Shown here piece after piece: positions 1 through 12,271 of a DNA stretch of 12,271 bases. How positions within the stretch are numbered: the first letter of the stretch is position 1; each line of letters opens with the position of its first letter. The notes under the pieces are model-generated. The model was not told the origin of the DNA. It searched no databases and worked only from the letters and a program-made list of their open reading frames with translations. Origin of the DNA: Verrucomicrobiota bacterium (lineage in GTDB: Bacteria > Verrucomicrobiota > Verrucomicrobiia > Opitutales > Seribacteraceae). The DNA lies in assembly GCA_027622665.1 (NCBI GenBank), contig JAQBYT010000058.1, positions 1 through 12,271 of the forward strand. The letters are read 5' to 3'. A program made the translations under genes and the position numbers.

Positions 1-1365
1 CTGATTCAAGGTAATCGCGTTTGTTCCCGCATTTAAGACCGCTATCTGACCATCATTGGTGATCACTCCACTCTGCGTAATCGCTCCGCCACTTGTTACA
101 CTCAAGGCTCCCGTTGCTGTTATTCCTGCTATCGCTGTTGCCGTCGTATCTACAAGTGTTACTGCTCCCCCAGTCAATGTTACATTGCCGGTCAAGTCGT
201 TTCCGGTACCACCCAAAGCCACGGTTTGACCCGTGGCACTTACAGTCAAAGTTCCGTCGATATCAATATTTCCGGCGTCTGTCACCGCTCCACCGGCTGT
301 CAAATTCAAGTTGTTTACATTGAGTCCAGATTGAATCACAAACGCGGTGCTGTCGTTGATTGTCACATCGCTGCCTGCGTCCGTTGTGAAAGTAACGTTG
401 CCCGTAAAGGTACTCGATGAACCCAAATCGATTGCAGCATTACTTCCTCCGCTATTGTCGAAGGTCGAAGTTCCACCTATTGTCAAAACACCGGTGTCAG
501 TAATCGCTCCGCTAGCGGTTACGGCCAAGTTCTGGCCTACTCCGATTGTTCCCAGGTCGATTGCATTCGCATCAGTTACCCCGACATCATTCGTTCCGCT
601 GTTGCTCAAGCTCACGGCTCCTGTAAAATCATTGGCCGCTTGGGTAAGAGTGATCGCATTTGCTCCCGCGGTGAAGCTAGAATCACCGGCGACTGTAAGA
701 GCTCCAGATTGGGTAATTGCACCTCCAGCCTCGATGGTGAGATCATTAATGCTTAATCCGGACTGAAGGTCGAGAGCAGTTGTGTCGGTGAGAGAAACAT
801 TACTTCCGGTATCAGTGGTAAAAGTTACAGTACCAGTAAAAGCATTCGCAGCGTTGGTAAGGGTGATCGATGCATCCGTTCCATCTTGATTATCCAAAAC
901 CGTGTTACCGGAAACTGTAACGACTCCGCTTTGGGTAATCGTTCCGACATTGTCCACTGTGAAATTGCCCCCAACCGTTACTGTTCCAAGTGTAAGATTA
1001 TTTGCATCGTCAATGATGACGTTGTTCGACCCAGTGTTGCTCAAGCTCACAGCCCCCGTAAAATCATTCGCCGAATCAAGGGTTATGGCATTGGCGCCGG
1101 CAGTAAAACTTGAGGTTCCCGTTACTGCCAAAATCCCACTATCGGTAATTGCGCCGCCGGCAGTCACGCCGAAATTGCCACTCACTGTAGATGCTCCCAA
1201 CGCAATGGCGTTGGTATCCACGAGAATTACGTTATTTCCGTTGGTTGTAATGACGGTTCCGAAGTTGTTGCTAGCGGTGTCGAAGGTGATATCATTAGCG
1301 GCGCCTGAAGCGAGGGTGGTAGTTCCAGAAACAGTAATGGTTCCGGTGTCGGTGATTGCACCACT
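1..1365 (-). repeat. Tandem ~68-74 aa degenerate beta-strand repeats in TpsA (at least 6 complete units plus a partial 7th)
   Basis: The motif G-(A/T)-(I/V)-T-(D/Q)-x-G recurs with the Gly codon starting at 1362, 1155, 945, 723, 510, 291 and 87 (spacings 207, 210, 222, 213, 219, 204 nt). The DNA 16-mer tgttgctcaagctcac occurs at 600-615 and 1035-1050. Confidence 0.9.
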
Positions 1366-3480
1366 TGAAGTGAGAGACATGTCACCAGTTACGGAAGTTG
1401 AGGCTAATGCGAAAGTTCCGTCGGTGGTTAGTGTGAGATTTCCAGCCGCAGCGGTGGCATTATTTGTGATGGCGAGAGCTTGCGATCCAGTTTGATCAAA
1501 TAGAATGTTTCCAGTTCCTGTTTGCACAATGGTCGTAATGCTAGTGGAGGCATCCGCTACATGATCGATATCAATGTTACCGGAACCCGTAGAAGAAGCA
1601 GAAATGGAGATAGCGCTTGCCAATTCGATTGCAGCCGAACTTCCAAGTCCGGTTGCCGCTGAAAGAATAACCGTATCTGCCGTGATGTCTGCGGTAGTGT
1701 CGGAAGCATGATCAATAACCGAACCAGCCGTTGAAGTAACGCTAACTTGAGCGGTGCCGGCAGTAATTGAATTGATACTAAGATTGCCCGAACCTTGAAT
1801 GGTAACATTACCATTGTTCGTGGAAGAAGAAATCGTCGCTGGTGTGGTAATGTTATTAATAGTTACAGATCCCGCAGTTTGGGAAACGGTTCCGGATATG
1901 GTGCCCCCACCGTTGCTAACGTCGACGGCACCGGTAACTTGAATAGCATCATCCGCGACAAGAACCAAATCGCCGACGGTAATGCTTGAAAACAGAAGTA
2001 TCGTCCCATCAGTACGAGTATTACCAGCAGTGACGGATAAATCTCCGGAACCAAGGTTGATAGAGCCCGAAATCATTGTGATGTCGCCATCCGCGGTGAT
2101 CGTAAGATCGTTGGATCCGGTTATGGCAAGGCCCGAATCCACAGAAATATTACCCGTTTCAGATCCTCCGCCGGCGGAAGTTTGAATAATAACATTGGAA
2201 CTGGCTAGAGCCGTATTAAGTGTAGAAAGGCTGATTACCGAACCTGCTGCTGCACTTGGCTCCAAGGTAGTGCTACCCGTAATAGAAGTGTGACTCACAA
2301 CGTCTTTGATTGTTATGTTAGTCGGGTCGAGCAGGAGAGTGCCACTCACGCCACTGGCAGAGCTAAGGTCCACGGAACCTTCAAAGTTAAGAATGTTTTT
2401 GCCTGAGACTTCGGCAAATCCGCCTGAACCGGAACCGGAACCGGTGGCAGATAAATCACCGATAAAAGTTGTCACTCCGTCTGCCCAAATGATTACGCGA
2501 CCGCCATCACCATTTAAAGAAGAGTCGGCAGATATTGTCCCCGAAATATTTGTCGTTTGGGCGTTAGAAAGATTCGCATTTTGACCTTGATAATCGCCGC
2601 CAATCCGAACCAATCCACCGCCAGTAGCGCCTGATGCATCCACTGTACCACTGACTGCAACCTGCTCACCCAAGATGGTTGCGCCACCACCTTGCGTGGT
2701 AGAGGAGGCGACGTCAATGGAGCCGGAATTATCCGCAGTCCCCCCAAGTAGGCCGGATAGATCGAGAGTGATTTTACCACCTGAGGCTTCACCGACTTCG
2801 AGAATGGCGTCGGCGGCCAGGAGGGCGGCATCTCCACCGCGAGAAATTATGGAACCGGCATTAGAAACTTTACCGCCGATGAGGGCGGCGAAGCTTTCGG
2901 CATTAATGGAACCAAGGTTGATAACGGCTGCTTCGGAATCGCCGGTGAAGGAAATATTTCCGGAGAGGAATGCCGAATCTGCGATATCGAGGGTCGAGGC
3001 GATAAGGGCGTGAACGTCGACGGTTGAATCCTTACCGAATATAATACCGTTTGGATTGACGAGGAACAGGTGACCATTGGCATTTAGGGAACCTAGAATT
3101 TCGCTGGGGTTCCCGCCAACGATGCGAGATAGAAGAGCGGAATCTATATTTGGTTGAACGATGTCGACGAGAGCGCCGGCCCCGATGTCGAAGCTCTGCC
3201 AATTGACAATTGCAGACTGGGATCCTTGAAGGATGCGAAGGGCGTCATTACCTTGCTGTTGGAGGTCTACGGTTCCATGGACAACAGTCGCACCCGAAGG
3301 AAGATTCGCAGCCCATGCCTGCCCCGGTGAACCCAGAGCAAAAACGAAGAGCCCGAGAGTCATTGAAGTAGCTTTCACACAATTGAGGGCAACATGTCCA
3401 ACGCGGCGAAGGCGGCGGCGGCATCGATCATGAATCCGGCGGAAGTTTGTAGAGAAGTTGGAAGTTTGCGTCTTCTTCAT
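1..3480 (-). CDS. TpsA-type secreted exoprotein (filamentous haemagglutinin N-terminal/TPS domain, HMW1-like), 3'-truncated by the window edge (>=1160 aa)
   Basis: Manual translation of the minus frame from ATG at 3480 to position 1 shows no stop codon. It begins MKKTQTSNFSTNFRRIHDRCRRRLRRVGHVALNCVKATSMTLGLFVFALGSPGQAWA|ANLPSGATVVHG. TPS-domain hallmarks follow: SAIVNWQSFDIG, SEILGSLNANGHLFLVNPNGIIFG (NPNG at 3057-3046), GGRVIIWAD, GGFAEVSGK and GTLLLDP. The rest is G/T/S/A/N-rich beta-helical repeats. It lies directly downstream of a tpsB gene. Confidence 0.95.
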   Translation of the reverse strand, partial: MKKTQTSNFSTNFRRIHDRCRRRLRRVGHVALNCVKATSMTLGLFVFALGSPGQAWAANLPSGATVVHGTVDLQQQGNDALRILQGSQSAIVNWQSFDIGAGALVDIVQPNIDSALLSRIVGGNPSEILGSLNANGHLFLVNPNGIIFGKDSTVDVHALIASTLDIADSAFLSGNISFTGDSEAAVINLGSINAESFAALIGGKVSNAGSIISRGGDAALLAADAILEVGEASGGKITLDLSGLLGGTADNSGSIDVASSTTQGGGATILGEQVAVSGTVDASGATGGGLVRIGGDYQGQNANLSNAQTTNISGTISADSSLNGDGGRVIIWADGVTTFIGDLSATGSGSGSGGFAEVSGKNILNFEGSVDLSSASGVSGTLLLDPTNITIKDVVSHTSITGSTTLEPSAAAGSVISLSTLNTALASSNVIIQTSAGGGSETGNISVDSGLAITGSNDLTITADGDITMISGSINLGSGDLSVTAGNTRTDGTILLFSSITVGDLVLVADDAIQVTGAVDVSNGGGTISGTVSQTAGSVTINNITTPATISSSTNNGNVTIQGSGNLSINSITAGTAQVSVTSTAGSVIDHASDTTADITADTVILSAATGLGSSAAIELASAISISASSTGSGNIDIDHVADASTSITTIVQTGTGNILFDQTGSQALAITNNATAAAGNLTLTTDGTFALASTSVTGDMSLTSSGAITDTGTITVSGTTTLASGAANDITFDTASNNFGTVITTNGNNVILVDTNAIALGASTVSGNFGVTAGGAITDSGILAVTGTSSFTAGANAITLDSANDFTGAVSLSNTGSNNVIIDDANNLTLGTVTVGGNFTVDNVGTITQSGVVTVSGNTVLDNQDGTDASITLTNAANAFTGTVTFTTDTGSNVSLTDTTALDLQSGLSINDLTIEAGGAITQSGALTVAGDSSFTAGANAITLTQAANDFTGAVSLSNSGTNDVGVTDANAIDLGTIGVGQNLAVTASGAITDTGVLTIGGTSTFDNSGGSNAAIDLGSSSTFTGNVTFTTDAGSDVTINDSTAFVIQSGLNVNNLNLTAGGAVTDAGNIDIDGTLTVSATGQTVALGGTGNDLTGNVTLTGGAVTLVDTTATAIAGITATGALSVTSGGAITQSGVITNDGQIAVLNAGTNAITLNQ

Positions 3481-3528
3481 AGCGACAATATTCGAGTGGG
3501 TCGTGAAATTAAAGGGAGGGGGAGGAAA

Positions 3529-5145
3529 TTAGAAACGGAAGTCGAAACTGAAATGCGCTCTTGGATTGTTAGCTGCACTGTCAGCCGTATCTTCCAATGG
3601 CACTCCGAGATGGAGGCCTATATCGACCGAAGACTTAAAGTTACATCTCACTCCGGCACCCACGCTGTGCATGGTAGTGGAGTCATCTTTGGCGGAAAGC
3701 GAATCCTCCGAAGCGACGTAACCAAAATCATAAAAGAAGAGGGGATGAATGACTCCGTAATTGGATATCTTTCGACTCTGAGCTGAGCCAAATCTCAATT
3801 CAGTATTAAAATGTACACCATGGTCGCCATATGCTTCTCGCTCCTCATACCCCCTGACGGTATTTACACCACCAATTGATTTTTGAAGCGAGGCGGGGAG
3901 TGGGTCGTTGGCAATTTGGCCGGCCAGATTCAAATACCAATCAATATTGTTACGCGCAAAGGAAAGGCGTTGCAGAGTAGCTAGTGAGAATTGAGTGGCG
4001 AAGAAACCGGAAGAAGCACCGGGTCGCTGATAGGACAAATCCGCATCATCACTGCTACCGGCATCGGTGATAAGGCTTAAAGACCAAAATGCCCGGCTAC
4101 CAATTACTCCCTGAAGGCCAATTCGGGGTACGACGAAGGCAAGACTTTGATCAGATACCGGGAGACCTTGAAAACTAACCCTGTTGGTTAAATCCAAATA
4201 GGTGAGACCGAAGTTCCAAGAGACACTACCGGAGTCCAAATGGGCAAACTTGTGTGAGAGAAGAAAACCTGCGTGCAAACCTTCTCCGCTGATATCAAGA
4301 GAAACAGGGGAGATCAACTGATCATATTCGGAATCCGAATAGCCAACGAAAGCAACCCAGCTCCAATTATCGTTGTTGGATCCCGAATATTGCGAAGAGT
4401 AAGAATTTAAATGCTCGGCGTCCGTAAGCCAGTTGAAAGAGAATTTGTCGGAATCGGCAAAGGGCTCGATGAAGTCGAACCCGGCGGAAGCACGCCAACC
4501 GGATGATTCTGCAGTACCGTCATTGGCTATTCGAGCCTTGTAAACAACGGGCAAGGAGTCATCCACCTTAAAATCGGCATCCACGATAATTTCCCCGTTG
4601 TCAGCGCGACGTGGACGCAACTTGGAATCGACATTCACGAAGCGGTTACGATTCAGGGTGGAGGCCGCGGACTGAAATTTACCGTAATGAAAGATTTCTC
4701 CCTCAGTCCAAAGAATGGATTTCAATATACCTTCGCTGGACAACCAGGCGTTACCGTCGACGTTACCCACGCCAATCTTGCCCGGTGCTACGGCAACGGT
4801 GAGACGGCCGGGATTGGCGGGATCGAAAGTGGCCCGGGCAGTGGCAAAAGGATAACCTGTCTTCCGCAGATGAGCGGAAACCTTATCGGCAAAAGCCGAA
4901 GCCTTGGGGGAAGCAACGGGTGAGCCAACTAAATCTTGGGCTCCACCATGGAGGTCTTTCAGGACTGGCTCCATCTCGGTCGGCATCGTGAAAGCGACTT
5001 GCGTTATGGTCTTACCCGCGACCTGAGCGTAACTCGACGCGGGCAGAGCTGCTAGGACCAGCAAGGCTGCAAGGGCAGTCCCCATGGTTGAGAAGAAGCT
5101 GGCGTGACGGGATTCGCCAGATGGTAGGGGAAATGTAATGTTCAT
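3529..5145 (-). CDS. TpsB / ShlB-FhaC-HecB family outer-membrane secretion/activation protein (Omp85 superfamily)
   Basis: 538-aa ORF with a signal peptide (ALAALLVLAALPASSYA|Q) and a POTRA-like region (LRKTGYPFA). It has the loop-6 motif TVRGYEE, an FxDxG motif (FFYDFG) and a C-terminal aromatic beta-signal (FSFDFRF). It is adjacent to and co-oriented with tpsA. The start could alternatively be the Met of MGTALAA. Confidence 0.93.
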   Translation of the reverse strand: MNITFPLPSGESRHASFFSTMGTALAALLVLAALPASSYAQVAGKTITQVAFTMPTEMEPVLKDLHGGAQDLVGSPVASPKASAFADKVSAHLRKTGYPFATARATFDPANPGRLTVAVAPGKIGVGNVDGNAWLSSEGILKSILWTEGEIFHYGKFQSAASTLNRNRFVNVDSKLRPRRADNGEIIVDADFKVDDSLPVVYKARIANDGTAESSGWRASAGFDFIEPFADSDKFSFNWLTDAEHLNSYSSQYSGSNNDNWSWVAFVGYSDSEYDQLISPVSLDISGEGLHAGFLLSHKFAHLDSGSVSWNFGLTYLDLTNRVSFQGLPVSDQSLAFVVPRIGLQGVIGSRAFWSLSLITDAGSSDDADLSYQRPGASSGFFATQFSLATLQRLSFARNNIDWYLNLAGQIANDPLPASLQKSIGGVNTVRGYEEREAYGDHGVHFNTELRFGSAQSRKISNYGVIHPLFFYDFGYVASEDSLSAKDDSTTMHSVGAGVRCNFKSSVDIGLHLGVPLEDTADSAANNPRAHFSFDFRF

Positions 5146-6882: not shown

Positions 6883-9768
6883 CTAACTCCGGGAGTCAAT
6901 CCTTTCCAGATATTCTTTCAGGCAAGTCCCTGTCGAGGTATCCGAATCAACCAGCGTCGAAGGCACTCCCGCAAAGATTAAATTACCTCCATCGCCACCT
7001 CCTCCGGGTCCCATTTCCAAAACATGATCAGCCAAGCGAATGACATCCAGCTGATGCTCGACAACGACAATTGTGTTCCCCGCGTCCCGAAGCTTGAAAA
7101 GCAAATCCATAAGCCTCTGAACATCGACCCAATGAAGCCCCGTGGTCGGTTCGTCGAGAAGGTAAAGAACGCCACCTTCCTGGCGACGACTGAGCTCCAA
7201 GGACAACTTCAGCCTCTGCGCCTCCCCTCCGGAAAGCGTGTTTGCTGATTGACCGAGACATAAATAACCTAAGCCGACCGCATCGAGCGTCTCTAATTTC
7301 GATGCGATAGTCGGCTGCTTCGTAAAAAGATCTTTTGCCTCCGAAACCGTCATATCCAAAACCTCGGCGACGTTGTAACCCCGAAAGCGGACTTCCAAGG
7401 TTTCTCGGTTGTAACGCTTCCCGTGACAGCTTTCGCACTCCACGAACACATCGGCCAAAAATTGCATATCCAACTTGACCGAACCATCGCCCTTGCAACG
7501 CTCGCAACGACCGCCCGCGACGTTGAAACTGAAGCGCCCAGGTCCGTATCCGCGAATTCGGCTGAGCGGGCATTGTGCAAACAGTTTTCGGAGCCCATCG
7601 AAAAGCTTCACGTAGGTAGCGGGATTGGAACGAGGACTGCGGCCGATTGGAGACTGGTCAACACGCACCACTTTCTGAAATTGCTCCAAGCCTTCCAATC
7701 CGGTGTGGGCTCCGGGGATTTGCTTGGCTCGATGGAGCCGAAAGGCGGCCGCCTTCGCCAAAACCTCGTTGACCAATGTGCTCTTGCCCGATCCCGACAC
7801 CCCGCAGACAACAGTGAGCAAACCGACGGGAAAAACCGCATCGACCTCGCGAAGATTGTTAGCGGTCGCTCCTCGAATAATCAATTGCCCCCTGCCGGGT
7901 TCCTTTGACTTGGCATCCTTTTCCACACGGTCGGCACCGGTCAAGAAAGGACCGGTACGACTTTCATCAGAAGACAGGCATTGTTGCACCGAACCGGCGA
8001 ATACAATATGACCGCCCTCAGCCCCGGCCCCGGGGCCAACCTCGACCAGATGATCCGCCGACAGCAAAGTATCGGCATCATGCTCCACCACGACAACGGT
8101 GTTGCCCCGATCCCGCAAACCGAGCAGGACGTTGAGCAAACGACGGTGATCCGCCGGATGCAAGCCGACGCTGGGTTCATCGAGAGCGTAGGTAACGCCG
8201 ACCAACCCCATGCCCAACTGCGTCGCCAGGCGAGCCCGTTGGGCCTCGCCTCCGCTCAAAGTGCCGTAAGGACGATTCAAGTTTAGGTAACCCAAACCCA
8301 CCTCGCAGAGAAAACGTAAACGCTGCTCCAAACCCGCCACGGCGTCCGCGACCAGAGCGTACTCGTCTGAGCCGAGAACGTCGTCCCTGACGAACGCCCA
8401 CGCGTCACCGGCAGAAAGTTCGAGCAAGGAAGAAAAAGTTCGTCCGCCGAGGAGAACATTTCGAGAATACGCAGAAAGCCGACGACCCTCGCATTTCTGA
8501 CAAACGGACCCGACTTGATAGGCCAACAAACGGGAACGCAACCCATCGCTGGAAGTGGTCAACATGGTGTGCTCCAAATCGGCGAATGCCCCTTCAAATC
8601 GGACCTCTTCCGGCTTGGCTCGACCTCGCTTCAATTTGAAGCTATATTTGCGTTTATTATCTCCCTGGAGCACAATTTTCTGTATTTCTTGAGGCAAATC
8701 GCCCCATCTTGTTTTAAGATCAAAAGGAACCTGTTCGGCTAACTGCCTGAGAATGGCGTTGCGTTGGATAATCATGCGTCTGGAACCGAGTCGCCATGGC
8801 TTGATCGCACCCTTGCCCACGGCAATGGATGGATCGGGAATAACGAGATCTTCGCGGAAGCGAAGCACTTCGCCAAGGCCACCGCAAGTTGAGCAAGCCC
8901 CATCGGGATTGTTCCAGGAAAACAGTCTCGGCGTGGGAGCAGGATAGGTTTCGCCGCACACTTCACAAGAATAGGCTTGAGAAACTGCAAATTCGCAAAA
9001 AGCCCCACCCTTGTCCTCGGAAACAAGAACCAGTGCCCGCTCATCACCTTCCCGGAAAGCGAGTTCAAGGGAATCGGCGAGGCGACTGCGGGCAGAATCG
9101 TCGAGAACGAGTCGATCGACTACCACGTCGACTAAAAGCTCTCGTCCACGGGTACCGGATGGAATCAGGTCGCGATCGTCGAGCCGTTTAACCTCGCCAT
9201 CGATCCGAACTCGTTGAAACCCTCGACGCTCCAGATTCGGCAACTCCTCGCGAAGGACCGACGCCTTGGCGGACATCCAGGGAGCCAGAAGCATGATACG
9301 ACTACCGGACGGCTCCTCCAAGATACGGTTGACGCAATCATCAAGTGAACGGCGAGTTACGAGTCCGCCATCCTGTGGGCAATGAGGAAGCCCCACGGTA
9401 GCCCAAAGCAGGCGAGCGTAATCGGCCACCTCGGTGGCGGTGGCGACCGTGCTACGAGGACCCCCCCCACCCGCTGAGACTTGCTCGATGGAAATAACCG
9501 GACTGAGCCCCTCGACGTAATCGACGTCGGGTCGACGAACCTTCTCCAGAGCTTGACGGGCCTTTGGAGACAAGCTTTCGACGTATTTCCGATGACCCTC
9601 TGCGGCAAGCACGTCGAAAACGAGAGAGGATTTCCCCGAACCACTGACTCCGGTAACGCCAATTAATTTTCCGCGCGGCAAGGAAACTGTCGCGTCCCGA
9701 AGATTGTTCTCGCGAGCTCCCTTGATTACAATGGAGACACTAGGATCGCCTAAAGAAGTTTTGTTCAC
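6883..9768 (-). CDS. uvrA: Excinuclease ABC subunit UvrA (possibly a divergent paralogue)
   Basis: 961 aa from a GTG start. GARENNL is followed by two Walker A motifs ([18 protein letters not shown]), two ABC signatures (LSGGEAQR), two Walker B regions ([18 protein letters not shown]), VVVEH switch motifs, Zn motifs (CEVC, CSTC, CQKC, CERC, CESC) and [17 protein letters not shown]. Confidence 0.96.
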
Positions 9769-9866
9769 AGGTCGGAAAAAAGCAGATGCTGTGTTTTTTT
9801 TGACGTCATCGGAAGTAAAAACGAACCCTTGTTACATTTAATAGGTAGCAAAATGATAGTTAAAAG
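9769..9866. promoter_or_regulatory. Short AT-rich divergent promoter region between uvrA and the ECF sigma gene
   Basis: 98-bp non-coding gap between head-to-head genes. It contains A/T tracts and the 8-bp palindrome TGACGTCA (9801-9808). No specific operator could be assigned. Confidence 0.4.
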
Positions 9867-10433
9867 ATGCAGAATGACAAAATGGAAGCAAAGGCCGAGC
9901 GGCAAGAATTTGCCAAACGACAAGAATTCGAGTGCCTTGTACGGGAAAACCAAAGCGGTCTACTTGCGTTTTTGCTCAGCCTTACGGGAAATCTTCCGGA
10001 CAGCGAAGATCTGGTCCAAGAATGCACCACTCTCCTATGGAGTAAGTTCGATGAATTCGAGTCCGGTAGCAATTTTGGCGCTTGGGCGAGGACCACGGCT
10101 TTTTTTCTCTTCCGAAACCAATGCAGGAAGGCATCTAACAAAACCATGACCTTCGAAGCCAACGTTTTGGAAAAACTGGCGATGGCCCACAACCGCATCG
10201 AAACGGAGGGTTCTACGAGGCAACACTTCCTATCGGAGTGCCTAGCCGAACTGGGTGAAAAGGACCGAGAGTTGATCTTGTCGCGTTACGAGACCGGGGT
10301 GACGGTCGGTGAATTGGCAACTCAAGCGAGTTGCAATGTGAAATCTCTTTATAATGCCTTGGCTCGCATACGCCAGGGCCTTGCGAGATGCGTCCGAGGA
10401 AAGATCACCGGAGAAAACGGAGGCTCGGCATGA
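9867..10433 (+). CDS. ECF-type sigma-70 factor (resembles the Rhodopirellula/Verrucomicrobium family)
   Basis: 188 aa. Region 2 reads LLAFLLSLTGNLPDSEDLVQECTTLLWSKFDEFESGSNFGAWARTTAF. The region 4 HTH reads LSECLAELGEKDRELILSRYETGVTVGELA...VKSLYNALARIRQGLARCV. An alternative start is ATG 9882. Confidence 0.93.
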   Translation: MQNDKMEAKAERQEFAKRQEFECLVRENQSGLLAFLLSLTGNLPDSEDLVQECTTLLWSKFDEFESGSNFGAWARTTAFFLFRNQCRKASNKTMTFEANVLEKLAMAHNRIETEGSTRQHFLSECLAELGEKDRELILSRYETGVTVGELATQASCNVKSLYNALARIRQGLARCVRGKITGENGGSA

Positions 10434-11812
10434 ACGATTCAATGAAGCAATCTTTTAGTCAGCGAAAAATACGCGACTTAATCGAGGCTCGATTCGAGAA
10501 TAATTTGGACGATACGGGCTTGGGGGAATTAGGAGAACACATTCTGAACGATCCGGCAGCCCTCAACGAATACGTCGAACAGGCCACCCTGTGGGCCGAC
10601 TTACGAGTGTTGGCAAAAAAGAAAGAAAACCAAGCAGTTTTCGAAGTGAATGGACGAAAAAAGCCAGTCGTTTCCCTTCGCCATATAGTCGCCTTTTCCA
10701 CGGCAATGGCAGCAAGCATTGCCGCGTTTTTCTTTTTCCAGAAGGAATCCCCTGAAGAAAATTCCATTAACGGTGAAACCGCGACTCCAAGCTTTGCCAC
10801 TTTACTTACTACCTCGGAAGCTTCCTGGGATTCGGAAAACTTCACGATGGCTTCTCGTTTGCCTGACCGCGTCTTACGGCTAGCAAGAGGTATTGCGGCT
10901 ATTCGGATGGACGGGGGGGCAAGTATGGTACTGCAAGGACCTACGGAGTTTAAGATCATCAACGGAAGCACCCTGGATCTTCGTAAAGGCAAGGTCGTAG
11001 TCCGCCTTCCGGAAGGTGCCGACATAAAAGTTTTCGCCGCGGGGTTTACCTTGCGCGACTTGGGCACCGAGTTCGGGATTCTAGCCACCACCGGCAGACA
11101 TGCCGAAACGCAATTCGACGTCTTCGAGGGAGAAGTCGAAGTCTTTTCAACAGAAACTGGCCTCAACAAGCTTGCAATCAAAGCAGGTCAGGGCGGGCGA
11201 ACAATTGAAGGGGGAAATGTCGAACTTCTCGCTACGGACACGCAACCCTATGCCGAACTGTCGAATTTTGCTCCTGAAATCTGCGTTGTTTCAAGCAAGC
11301 TTGCCAAGGAAAAGACTGATCTAAAAAGATTTACGGGCAGCACCGAGGGAATCCTGCTGGATAAGGGAAAGAGCAGCAAGTTAGGTTTGTGGGTCAACGT
11401 ACAAACCGACATGGAAAAGAAGATCGGAAAGATTCTCGTCCCTAACGAACTCGTCGAGGCCGCTTCACATCTCTACACGCCAAACCGGGTGAAGGTGGAA
11501 TGGACGAAGGCCGAGGGATCCGATTATCCCACCGCCACCGCCGTGCATAACCTGCGACCTGCGGAGAACGAGGGAACGATCACGGGCAAGGTCGTGGCCA
11601 AATCCGACGACAAATGGATAGAGATCAAGCAGACCGATGGTCCGCTTCGCAGATATATCCCCAGCTGGACGGGGGGGCATCCAAATCAAGGCGGCGGTCT
11701 CAACTTCGTCGCCCAAAAGCTCATCAGGGAATCAAAACTTGGGAGCAAAGTTCAGGTTGAATGGATTTGGGACGAACGCGTACGCCTCATCAACCTATTG
11801 CCTATCAATTGA
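10430..11812 (+). CDS. FecR-domain membrane-anchored anti-sigma factor with an uncharacterised C-terminal extracytoplasmic domain (460 aa)
   Basis: The start is placed at ATG 10430 rather than 10388 because of an ATGA overlap with the sigma stop and GGAGG at 10419-10423. The N-terminal helical anti-sigma-like domain (IRDLIEARFENNLDD...DPAALNEYVEQATLWADL) is followed by a single TM helix (IVAFSTAMAASIAAFFFF). Next comes a FecR-like domain (LRLARGIAAIRMDGGASMVLQGP...LRKGKV...DLGTEFGI...VFEGEVEV) and then a ~160-aa extra domain. Confidence 0.88.
   Translation: MNDSMKQSFSQRKIRDLIEARFENNLDDTGLGELGEHILNDPAALNEYVEQATLWADLRVLAKKKENQAVFEVNGRKKPVVSLRHIVAFSTAMAASIAAFFFFQKESPEENSINGETATPSFATLLTTSEASWDSENFTMASRLPDRVLRLARGIAAIRMDGGASMVLQGPTEFKIINGSTLDLRKGKVVVRLPEGADIKVFAAGFTLRDLGTEFGILATTGRHAETQFDVFEGEVEVFSTETGLNKLAIKAGQGGRTIEGGNVELLATDTQPYAELSNFAPEICVVSSKLAKEKTDLKRFTGSTEGILLDKGKSSKLGLWVNVQTDMEKKIGKILVPNELVEAASHLYTPNRVKVEWTKAEGSDYPTATAVHNLRPAENEGTITGKVVAKSDDKWIEIKQTDGPLRRYIPSWTGGHPNQGGGLNFVAQKLIRESKLGSKVQVEWIWDERVRLINLLPIN
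11432..11597 (+). repeat. Copy 1 of a dispersed direct repeat (partner at 12106-12271), within the anti-sigma C-terminal domain
   Basis: Ungapped hand alignment at offset 674 gives 21 mismatches in 166 nt, including a 34-bp identical run (11526-11559 vs 12200-12233). Weaker similarity extends upstream to 11342 (TEGILLDKG). Confidence 0.95.
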
Positions 11813-11890
11813 AAATGAATCGGCGATCCCAGCAAAACTTAACGAAAGAACAAAATATAAAATTCCGTGCTTTAGTATGTCTCGAGCGTG

Positions 11891-11903
11891 AATAATCATT
11901 ATT
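11891..11903. promoter_or_regulatory. Perfect 6-1-6 inverted repeat AATAAT-C-ATTATT, resembling a Fur-family operator core
   Basis: The palindrome is seen directly, 37 nt upstream of the ATG at 11941. GAATAATCATTATTA matches 11/14 specified positions of the Fur 7-1-7 consensus TGATAATnATTATCA. The AT-rich context makes a chance match possible. Confidence 0.35.
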
Positions 11904-11940
11904 ATAAGAAATACCTTTTTAGTATAAAGGTTGCCCAACC

Positions 11941-12271
11941 ATGAAAAAAAATACTTTTATTCCACTACTAACCCTTTTTAGCCTCCTTTTTTTTACCTCA
12001 GCTCTCAAAGCCGAGAATGGAGTCACCGAGGGCATTCTGTTGGGCAAGGGAGCCAACAACGAATCGCTTGAAGTGCGCTCAGACGGGCACGCCACTGCCG
12101 AAGAAATTTTGGTTCCGAACGAACTCGTCAATGACGTTTTACACCTCTACGTGCCAAACCGGGTGAAGGTGCAATGGTCGAAGGCCGAGGGTGCCGATCA
12201 TCCCACCGCCACCGCCGTGCATAACCTGCGACCGGAGGCGAACGAGGGAACGATCTCGGGCAAGGTCGTGG
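11941..12271 (+). CDS. Secreted/periplasmic protein of unknown function (3'-truncated), homologous to the anti-sigma C-terminal domain
   Basis: Open frame from ATG 11941 to the window end: MKKNTFIPLLTLFSLLFFTSALKA|ENGVTEGILLGKGANNESLEVRSDGHATAEEILVPNELVNDVLHLYVPNRVKVQWSKAEGADHPTATAVHNLRPEANEGTISGKVV. It has a classic Sec signal peptide and AAGG at 11927-11930. It is absent from the ORF track because there is no stop in the window. Confidence 0.9.
   Translation, partial: MKKNTFIPLLTLFSLLFFTSALKAENGVTEGILLGKGANNESLEVRSDGHATAEEILVPNELVNDVLHLYVPNRVKVQWSKAEGADHPTATAVHNLRPEANEGTISGKVV
12106..12271 (+). repeat. Copy 2 of the dispersed direct repeat (partner at 11432-11597); probably continues past the window edge
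   Basis: Same alignment as copy 1. Identity is maintained to the last base of the window. Confidence 0.95.

Follow-up and report, generated by a model that had tools for sequence, protein, structure and literature searches.

The FecI/FecR/FecA, PupI/PupR/PupB and FoxI/FoxR/FoxA systems combine an ECF sigma factor with a one-helix anti-sigma factor that follows it and bears a FecR beta domain with a Gly-Thr motif, at which FecR and FoxR are described to cleave themselves; PupR is described to need a C-terminal subdomain for binding its transducer (PMC9249621). The locus analysed here, from a Verrucomicrobiota bacterium, has the same gene order and the same anti-sigma scaffold. Unlike those systems, it lacks a linked TonB-dependent transducer, the C-terminal subdomain of its anti-sigma factor is a predicted double-OB module shared with the neighbouring gene, its FecR domain is dispensable in one lineage, and its sigma factor is of the TIGR02989 family.

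The closest working analogy is the SigI/RsgI system of cellulolytic clostridia, implicated in biomass sensing, in which the anti-sigma factor carries its own extracytoplasmic sensory module and control of exported proteins has been proposed (PMC6852018; PMC6056542). The present locus differs in having an ECF sigma factor and a FecR scaffold in a diderm cell, and in its candidate sensor, which is an unnamed OB pair rather than a PA14 or CBM domain and is closely paralogous to the repeats encoded next to it, with which it appears to exchange DNA. Judged by its genes and domains, the locus belongs to neither group, because, on the one side, it has neither a linked transducer nor the subdomain for binding one, and because the sigma factor is TIGR02989 rather than sigma-I class and the anti-sigma factor is of FecR type on the other.

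The same sigma family and scaffold recur in the TIGR02989 sigma/FecR-LamG and similar pairs of PVC bacteria, whose C-terminal domains vary. The 14 other FecR loci of the bacterial family that we viewed carry other C-terminal domains and, by eye, have sulfatase-like or cytochrome-c-type neighbours, whereas here the C-terminal domain appears to have been copied from the neighbour. Sharing of this kind with a neighbour was not seen at the three other TIGR02989 loci in the genome. The ECF reclassification ties FecR-like anti-sigmas to ECF239-243 and ECF267, and the passages of it that we consulted do not mention the present arrangement (PMC7826278); our literature search, which took in few subscription papers, found no description of the module or of this sensor/neighbour pairing.

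Organization of the locus

The window, the stretch of 12,271 nt analysed here, makes up all of contig C9 in a genome assembly of 66 contigs and 4.5 Mb (G000), and the runs that contain the sequence come from marine, estuarine or aquatic samples. Three plus-strand genes, the last of them cut by the contig end, make up the system (Table 1). The sigma factor scores 135.8 bits against TIGR02989 (curated cut-off 124.55), and its stop codon overlaps the start codon of the anti-sigma gene (ATGA). The anti-sigma factor has the make-up of the FecR type, with a predicted N-terminal cytoplasmic domain, one membrane helix and a FecR domain; the PF04773 match falls below the cut-off here and lies above it in the G007 and G001 orthologues (1e-7 and 9e-6). 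A putative Gly-Thr self-cleavage motif (DLGTEF) lies at residues 212-213 (nt 11063). A Pfam scan of the anti-sigma factor up to E 0.1 returned FecR hits only, and a single-sequence structure model of the full-length protein reached a pLDDT of 31, too low to be of use. No plasmid match was found for the locus, and RNA runs yielded only scattered short contigs from it, which have no bearing on expression. At the other end of the window, positions 1-5145 (-) hold a two-partner secretion pair, composed of a TpsB of the ShlB family (3529-5145) and a TpsA (-) that bears a TPS domain and DUF5649 repeats and is truncated where the contig begins.

Table 1. Features of the locus, in window coordinates.
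Feature	Position	Strand	Basis
uvrA (divergent flank; synteny anchor outside the system)	6883..9768	-	Pfam UvrA domains; same place in relatives
ECF sigma factor, 188 aa, TIGR02989 (Rhodopirellula/Verrucomicrobium family)	9867..10433	+	Sigma70_r2, r4_2
Anti-sigma factor, 460 aa	10430..11812	+	ORF; orthologues in G001, G007, G008
Predicted single transmembrane helix, anti-sigma residues 85-103	10682..10738	+	Best 19-residue hydropathy window, 1.81
FecR beta domain, anti-sigma residues 154-237	10889..11140	+	PF04773, E 0.001
Unnamed 158-aa module, predicted two OB barrels, C-terminal periplasmic domain of the anti-sigma factor	11336..11809	+	AlphaFold2, OB-fold matches, alignment
Putative gene-conversion tract, array-type sequence in the anti-sigma module	11425..11645, may reach ~11701	+	Two-breakpoint test
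AT-rich spacer	11813..11940	+	Alignment of six spacers
Giant exported protein, 5' end (signal-peptide-like N-terminus ~11941-12012; first array module from 12019)	11941..12271	+

The anti-sigma factor shares a duplicated sequence with the next gene

The initial annotation had noticed that the C-terminus of the anti-sigma factor resembles the N-terminus of the next gene, and both its coordinates and its counts were reproduced exactly. TEGILLDKG at 11342 in the anti-sigma factor corresponds to TEGILLGKG at 12025, and the core at 11432-11597 is identical to that at 12106-12271 in 145/166 nt and 43/55 aa (repeat D1; blastn E 9e-53). The contig end falls inside this repeat. An assembly artefact was considered and rejected: in four of four DNA runs compared, which stem from four studies, contigs with no differences span 9800 to 11555/11558 (one contig in three runs, two overlapping contigs in run X2), a 541-nt contig covers 11530-12070 in each run, and a second assembly (L040) is 99.9% identical to window positions 8348-12094. 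The module has a contig depth 4-9x that of its flanks, a figure that is summed over contigs and is no measure of copy number.

The contig breaks where it does because the module is arrayed in tandem. Extension of the 11941 gene, which had been proposed as a check, was achieved through a protein of another assembly (P0165) that is identical at 78/83 residues to the first array module of the window and then at 1383/1383 to an ORF on contig C13, and through synteny, relatives linking uvrA (on C9) to an aminotransferase gene (on C13). After the gap the gene resumes at G000:C13:3-4154, which includes its 3' end; the protein measures at least ~1,500 aa. The shared sequence with the downstream partner stands, and what had been taken for a single N-terminal domain is the first of several tandem modules: L041 holds two full array modules, 93% identical, and the start of a third, P0154 has four module segments, and in each of the four runs there are contigs in which a Pro/Glu linker leads into additional copies. 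Orthologues of the giant protein carry CarboxypepD_reg repeats, a LamG domain in some cases and a Trp-rich C-terminal region with matches at many other sites of this genome, a domain make-up from which we infer an adhesin, probably located at the cell surface. The C-terminal part of G000:C13:3-4154 has its Trp-rich region and an InlB-B-like repeat in common with ~20 other contigs of the genome, and is possibly a sorting or anchoring domain of the Opitutales.

Fold and family of the shared module

The shared domain is unnamed, the module having no family match in Pfam or NCBIfam. An AlphaFold2 model built from a 39-row alignment (pLDDT 93.5) predicts two OB folds, taken here as five-stranded barrels with a capping helix: barrel 1 matches at Z 9.8 (rmsd 2.0 over 73 residues) and barrel 2, which was tested less, at Z 7.5. 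Fold searches returned OB folds only, with none standing out. Extracytoplasmic OB folds (SilF/CusF, CcmE, PilY2, AB5 B-subunits) match each barrel at Z ~8, and SSB-type folds reach equal or higher scores (Z 9.8), at identities of 4-25%; since, in addition, the alignment contains no conserved His, Met or Cys columns that could act as metal ligands, the fold does not indicate a function. A sequence search of solved structures gave nothing below E 0.4, and DUF1344 matched weakly in 5 of the 39 members (best E 0.02), with Atlas scores below 0.9 in comparisons with DUF1344, DUF3221 and CusF. The most conserved feature of the family is a Trp/Gly/Pro loop flanked by Arg, Asp and Trp, which most members have in both barrels. 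The window's anti-sigma module retains this family loop (R-Y-x-P-x-W-x-GG-x-P-xx-GGG-x-D) in barrel 2 and has lost it in barrel 1; local anti-sigma modules and array modules alike lack the barrel-1 loop.

A profile search placed 562 clusters at 50% identity in the module family. We scanned the best 150 relatives with Pfam and found 36 distinct proteins in which the module is fused to a signal transducer, 26 with FecR, 5 with an ECF sigma factor (one has both) and 6 with a Ser/Thr kinase; one of the 36 is the G001 orthologue of the window's anti-sigma factor, and the other 114 relatives mostly have no family match. A strong hydrophobic helix separates kinase and module in all six kinase fusions. 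Reuse on three transducer types is our main reason for considering the module probably a real extracytoplasmic sensor, which agrees with the earlier reading of the anti-sigma C-terminus as a sensor-type domain. The ECF sigma factors P0024, P0092, P0150 and P0132 are joined to the module through a membrane helix, and in P0024 a signal-peptide-like stretch directly precedes the module, as if a whole secreted gene had been captured. P0012 and P0044 combine the module with an STN-like domain (above the Pfam cut-off in P0012, below it in P0044), a possible link to FecR-type partners.

With a single query, the module was found in 36 of 36 genomes of the bacterial family and in 0 of 24 other families of the order, and a profile search found it outside the family in 5 of 400 Verrucomicrobiota genomes, four of which encode it as small single-barrel secreted proteins. 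No sigma or FecR gene was recognised within ~1.5 kb of these five homologues. Stand-alone secreted paralogues also occur in the genome of the window (G000:C48:68929-69588 (-) and G000:C20:6779-7720 (-)); the C20 type ends in a Pro-rich NPF tail, and most family matches seem to stem from it.

Origin and mosaic structure of the anti-sigma module

A quick tree of 51 rows groups the five local anti-sigma modules with five array modules on a single branch (SH-aLRT 100), to which none of the 15 other FecR-fused modules included belongs. The tree gives grouping rather than direction, and the grouping points to local recruitment of the window's candidate sensor; the outer domain of the anti-sigma factor likely arose from a local duplication of the giant protein's repeated module. 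Between the anti-sigma factor and its own neighbour, the core is identical at 22/55 residues in G007, 22/55 in G001 and 30/55 in L041 (40%, 40% and 55%), and the duplication is therefore old. The earlier proposal that the anti-sigma domain is, as a rule, closer to its own neighbour than to its orthologues was rejected on these values: for the core it is true only in the lineage of the window.

In that lineage, the flanks of the anti-sigma module are 75-80% identical in nucleotides to the G008/L041 orthologues, whereas for the core this figure is 61%, against 87% for the comparison with its own neighbour; core and neighbour have 21 of 25 four-fold sites in common. Flank and core trees disagree on the placement of the window's anti-sigma factor. 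A two-breakpoint test delimited a tract (Table 1) inside which 57/73 informative sites are array-like, against 12/86 outside (0/300 permutations as strong), and residues 33-122 of the module are identical to the last array module of the species at 74/90 positions. By these measures, the 78% core identity of the window is a recent gene-conversion patch and not a likeness of the whole domain; the high identity first reported holds in the core and does not extend across the domain (11/29 aa upstream of the patch). The core of P0001 is array-like too (43/55 versus 31/55) and may derive from the same event. At the protein level, P0163 follows the G001 anti-sigma factor (31/32 and 51/55) and then departs from it (14/33), its last stretch being closer to the G001 array (25/33). 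This separate patch, taken with the window tract, makes it likely that DNA has been copied between array and anti-sigma gene at least twice. Candidate older tracts in the anti-sigma factors of G007, L041 and G001 changed with the choice of parents (0, 22, 0, 41 and 33 of 300 permutations) and were set aside.

Distribution of the cassette and its surroundings

The interval from uvrA to the aminotransferase gene was resolved in nine loci, with G002 and G004 not among them. The full triplet of sigma, anti-sigma and giant gene occurs in G000, G007 and G008, and G001 has the anti-sigma and giant genes on a contig that ends inside the sigma gene. A module-bearing giant gene lies directly by uvrA in G009, without the sigma pair. 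In G003, G005 and G006, close relatives whose uvrA is ~90% identical to that of the window, the cassette is absent; the left ends of the deletions, where the sigma remnants stop, differ and fall near window positions 10325, 10073 and 9863, respectively. G013 lacks the cassette too. No intact sigma pair without a giant gene was seen among the nine resolved loci. Among 75 other genomes of the family, only G001, G007 and G008 have an orthologue of the anti-sigma factor, and the pairing first proposed for the window is found again in these three further members of the genus, and also in L041.

All four lineages that keep the anti-sigma factor have the module intact and in frame, including one that has lost the FecR domain: the FecR-less anti-sigma factor of G008, L041 and several database proteins measures 296 aa, and at L035:357-1289 (-) and L041:305-1237 (+) the in-frame loss joins the membrane helix almost directly to the module. 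In L042, P0002 and a contig of run X13, a deletion joins the sigma N-terminus to the module in what appears to be a decayed fusion, with a stop codon in the module of L042. The joints in L042:715-1131 and run X13 (window position 10009) lie at a short near-repeat and come from separate records. Such fusions indicate that recombination at the locus also destroys the switch. In the genomes compared, the cassette is narrowly distributed, labile and often lost.

An alignment of six spacers upstream of the giant gene revealed no recognisable conserved ECF-type promoter, the spacers looking, by eye, more like housekeeping promoters, and a consensus scan of the spacer gave no promoter-like or terminator-like site on the plus strand. 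The initial annotation had seen no TonB-dependent receptor at the locus, and this was borne out beyond the window: all six TonB-receptor barrels (PF00593) of the genome are on contigs other than C9 and C13, and none lies between uvrA and the aminotransferase gene in any relative examined.

Discussion

Observed features of this locus are its three genes, the module common to two of them, the tandem array of that module in the exported protein and the mosaic sequence between the two, for which a double OB fold and a membrane topology are predicted. By analogy with RsgI, we propose, with a probability of about 0.5, that the system senses, independently of TonB, a ligand common to the anti-sigma factor and the giant protein. 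The outer module of the anti-sigma factor would bind the same ligand as the giant protein's modules; occupancy of the conserved Trp/Gly loop would destabilise the periplasmic part of the anti-sigma factor, regulated proteolysis would follow as in FoxR and FecR, and the freed sigma factor would transcribe the cassette, switching on the giant gene without a TonB-dependent receptor. Gene conversion from the adjacent array would patch the sensor now and then, through selection or as a by-product of adjacency, both of which are possible. We favour this shared-ligand reading because the module recurs on FecR, ECF-sigma and Ser/Thr-kinase transducers, because the local anti-sigma and array modules share one branch and the loss of the barrel-1 loop, because the G008/L041 anti-sigma factor dropped its FecR domain yet retains the module, because the genes occur together in G000, G007, G008 and (anti-sigma and giant gene) G001 and are absent together from G003, G005 and G006, and because C9 and C13 hold no TonB receptor and the other TIGR02989 loci show no sharing. 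Against it count the giant gene of G009 without a sigma pair, the absence of a recognised ECF promoter from the spacers, the decayed sigma-module fusions and the five extra-family homologues with no recognised sigma or FecR gene nearby, as well as the fact that adjacency alone would lead one to expect joint deletion of the cassette. The compartments also weigh against it: with the anti-sigma module in the periplasm and the giant protein probably on the cell surface, any ligand common to both has to enter the periplasm.

Several of these objections feed a different explanation, in which the module senses, the anti-sigma factor is decaying or acts on other genes, and the resemblance between the two genes reflects an old duplication followed by neutral conversion. 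Conversion tracts that differ by lineage, the unaccompanied giant gene of G009, the deleted or truncated versions in G003, G005, G006 and L042 and the lack of a recognised ECF promoter would all follow; an in-frame module in every lineage with the anti-sigma factor, even after FecR loss, and the want of any intact sigma pair without the giant gene among the nine resolved loci argue otherwise, and we rate this explanation as unlikely, though to be taken seriously. The compartment problem would be solved if the anti-sigma module bound, homotypically, the modules of the giant protein as they cross the periplasm, reporting export or abundance as feedback, which would also give a reason for the repeated sequence matching between the two genes. 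OB folds often oligomerise. However, the core has drifted to 40-55% identity in three of the four lineages, and many members of the family are small secreted proteins that stand alone, no sigma gene having been seen close to them, which makes such monitoring doubtful to us; a co-fold of the L041 anti-sigma module with an L041 array module scored 0.28 against a mark of 0.32 and is evidence neither way. Classical surface signalling, with a TonB-dependent transducer whose gene lies elsewhere and with the module in an accessory role, could draw on the anti-sigma factor's FecR domain and Gly-Thr motif, the six receptor barrels of the genome and the two family members with an STN-like domain (one above and one below the cut-off), but the OB module takes the place of the PupR-type transducer-binding subdomain, the G008/L041 lineage has no FecR domain, and no relative examined has a receptor at the locus; we consider it very improbable.

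To the systems already described, the locus adds a repeat-array donor, conversion tracts, a FecR-less variant and joint losses. PVC bacteria commonly have TIGR02989 sigma factors, for which we found no paper that names the input signals; with a small module, predicted to fold well, on both the candidate sensor and its probable target, the locus offers a tractable case. The module itself represents an unnamed domain family that appears to serve three kinds of signal transducer, and the conversion mosaic suggests a route by which a regulator may gain or refresh its specificity from the adjoining gene. A rather unlikely extension of the shared-ligand reading is a self-tuning sensor, in which repeated conversion from the adhesin array keeps the specificity of the anti-sigma factor matched to that of the adhesin as the array evolves; if true, a receptor and the effector that it controls would be evolving in concert.
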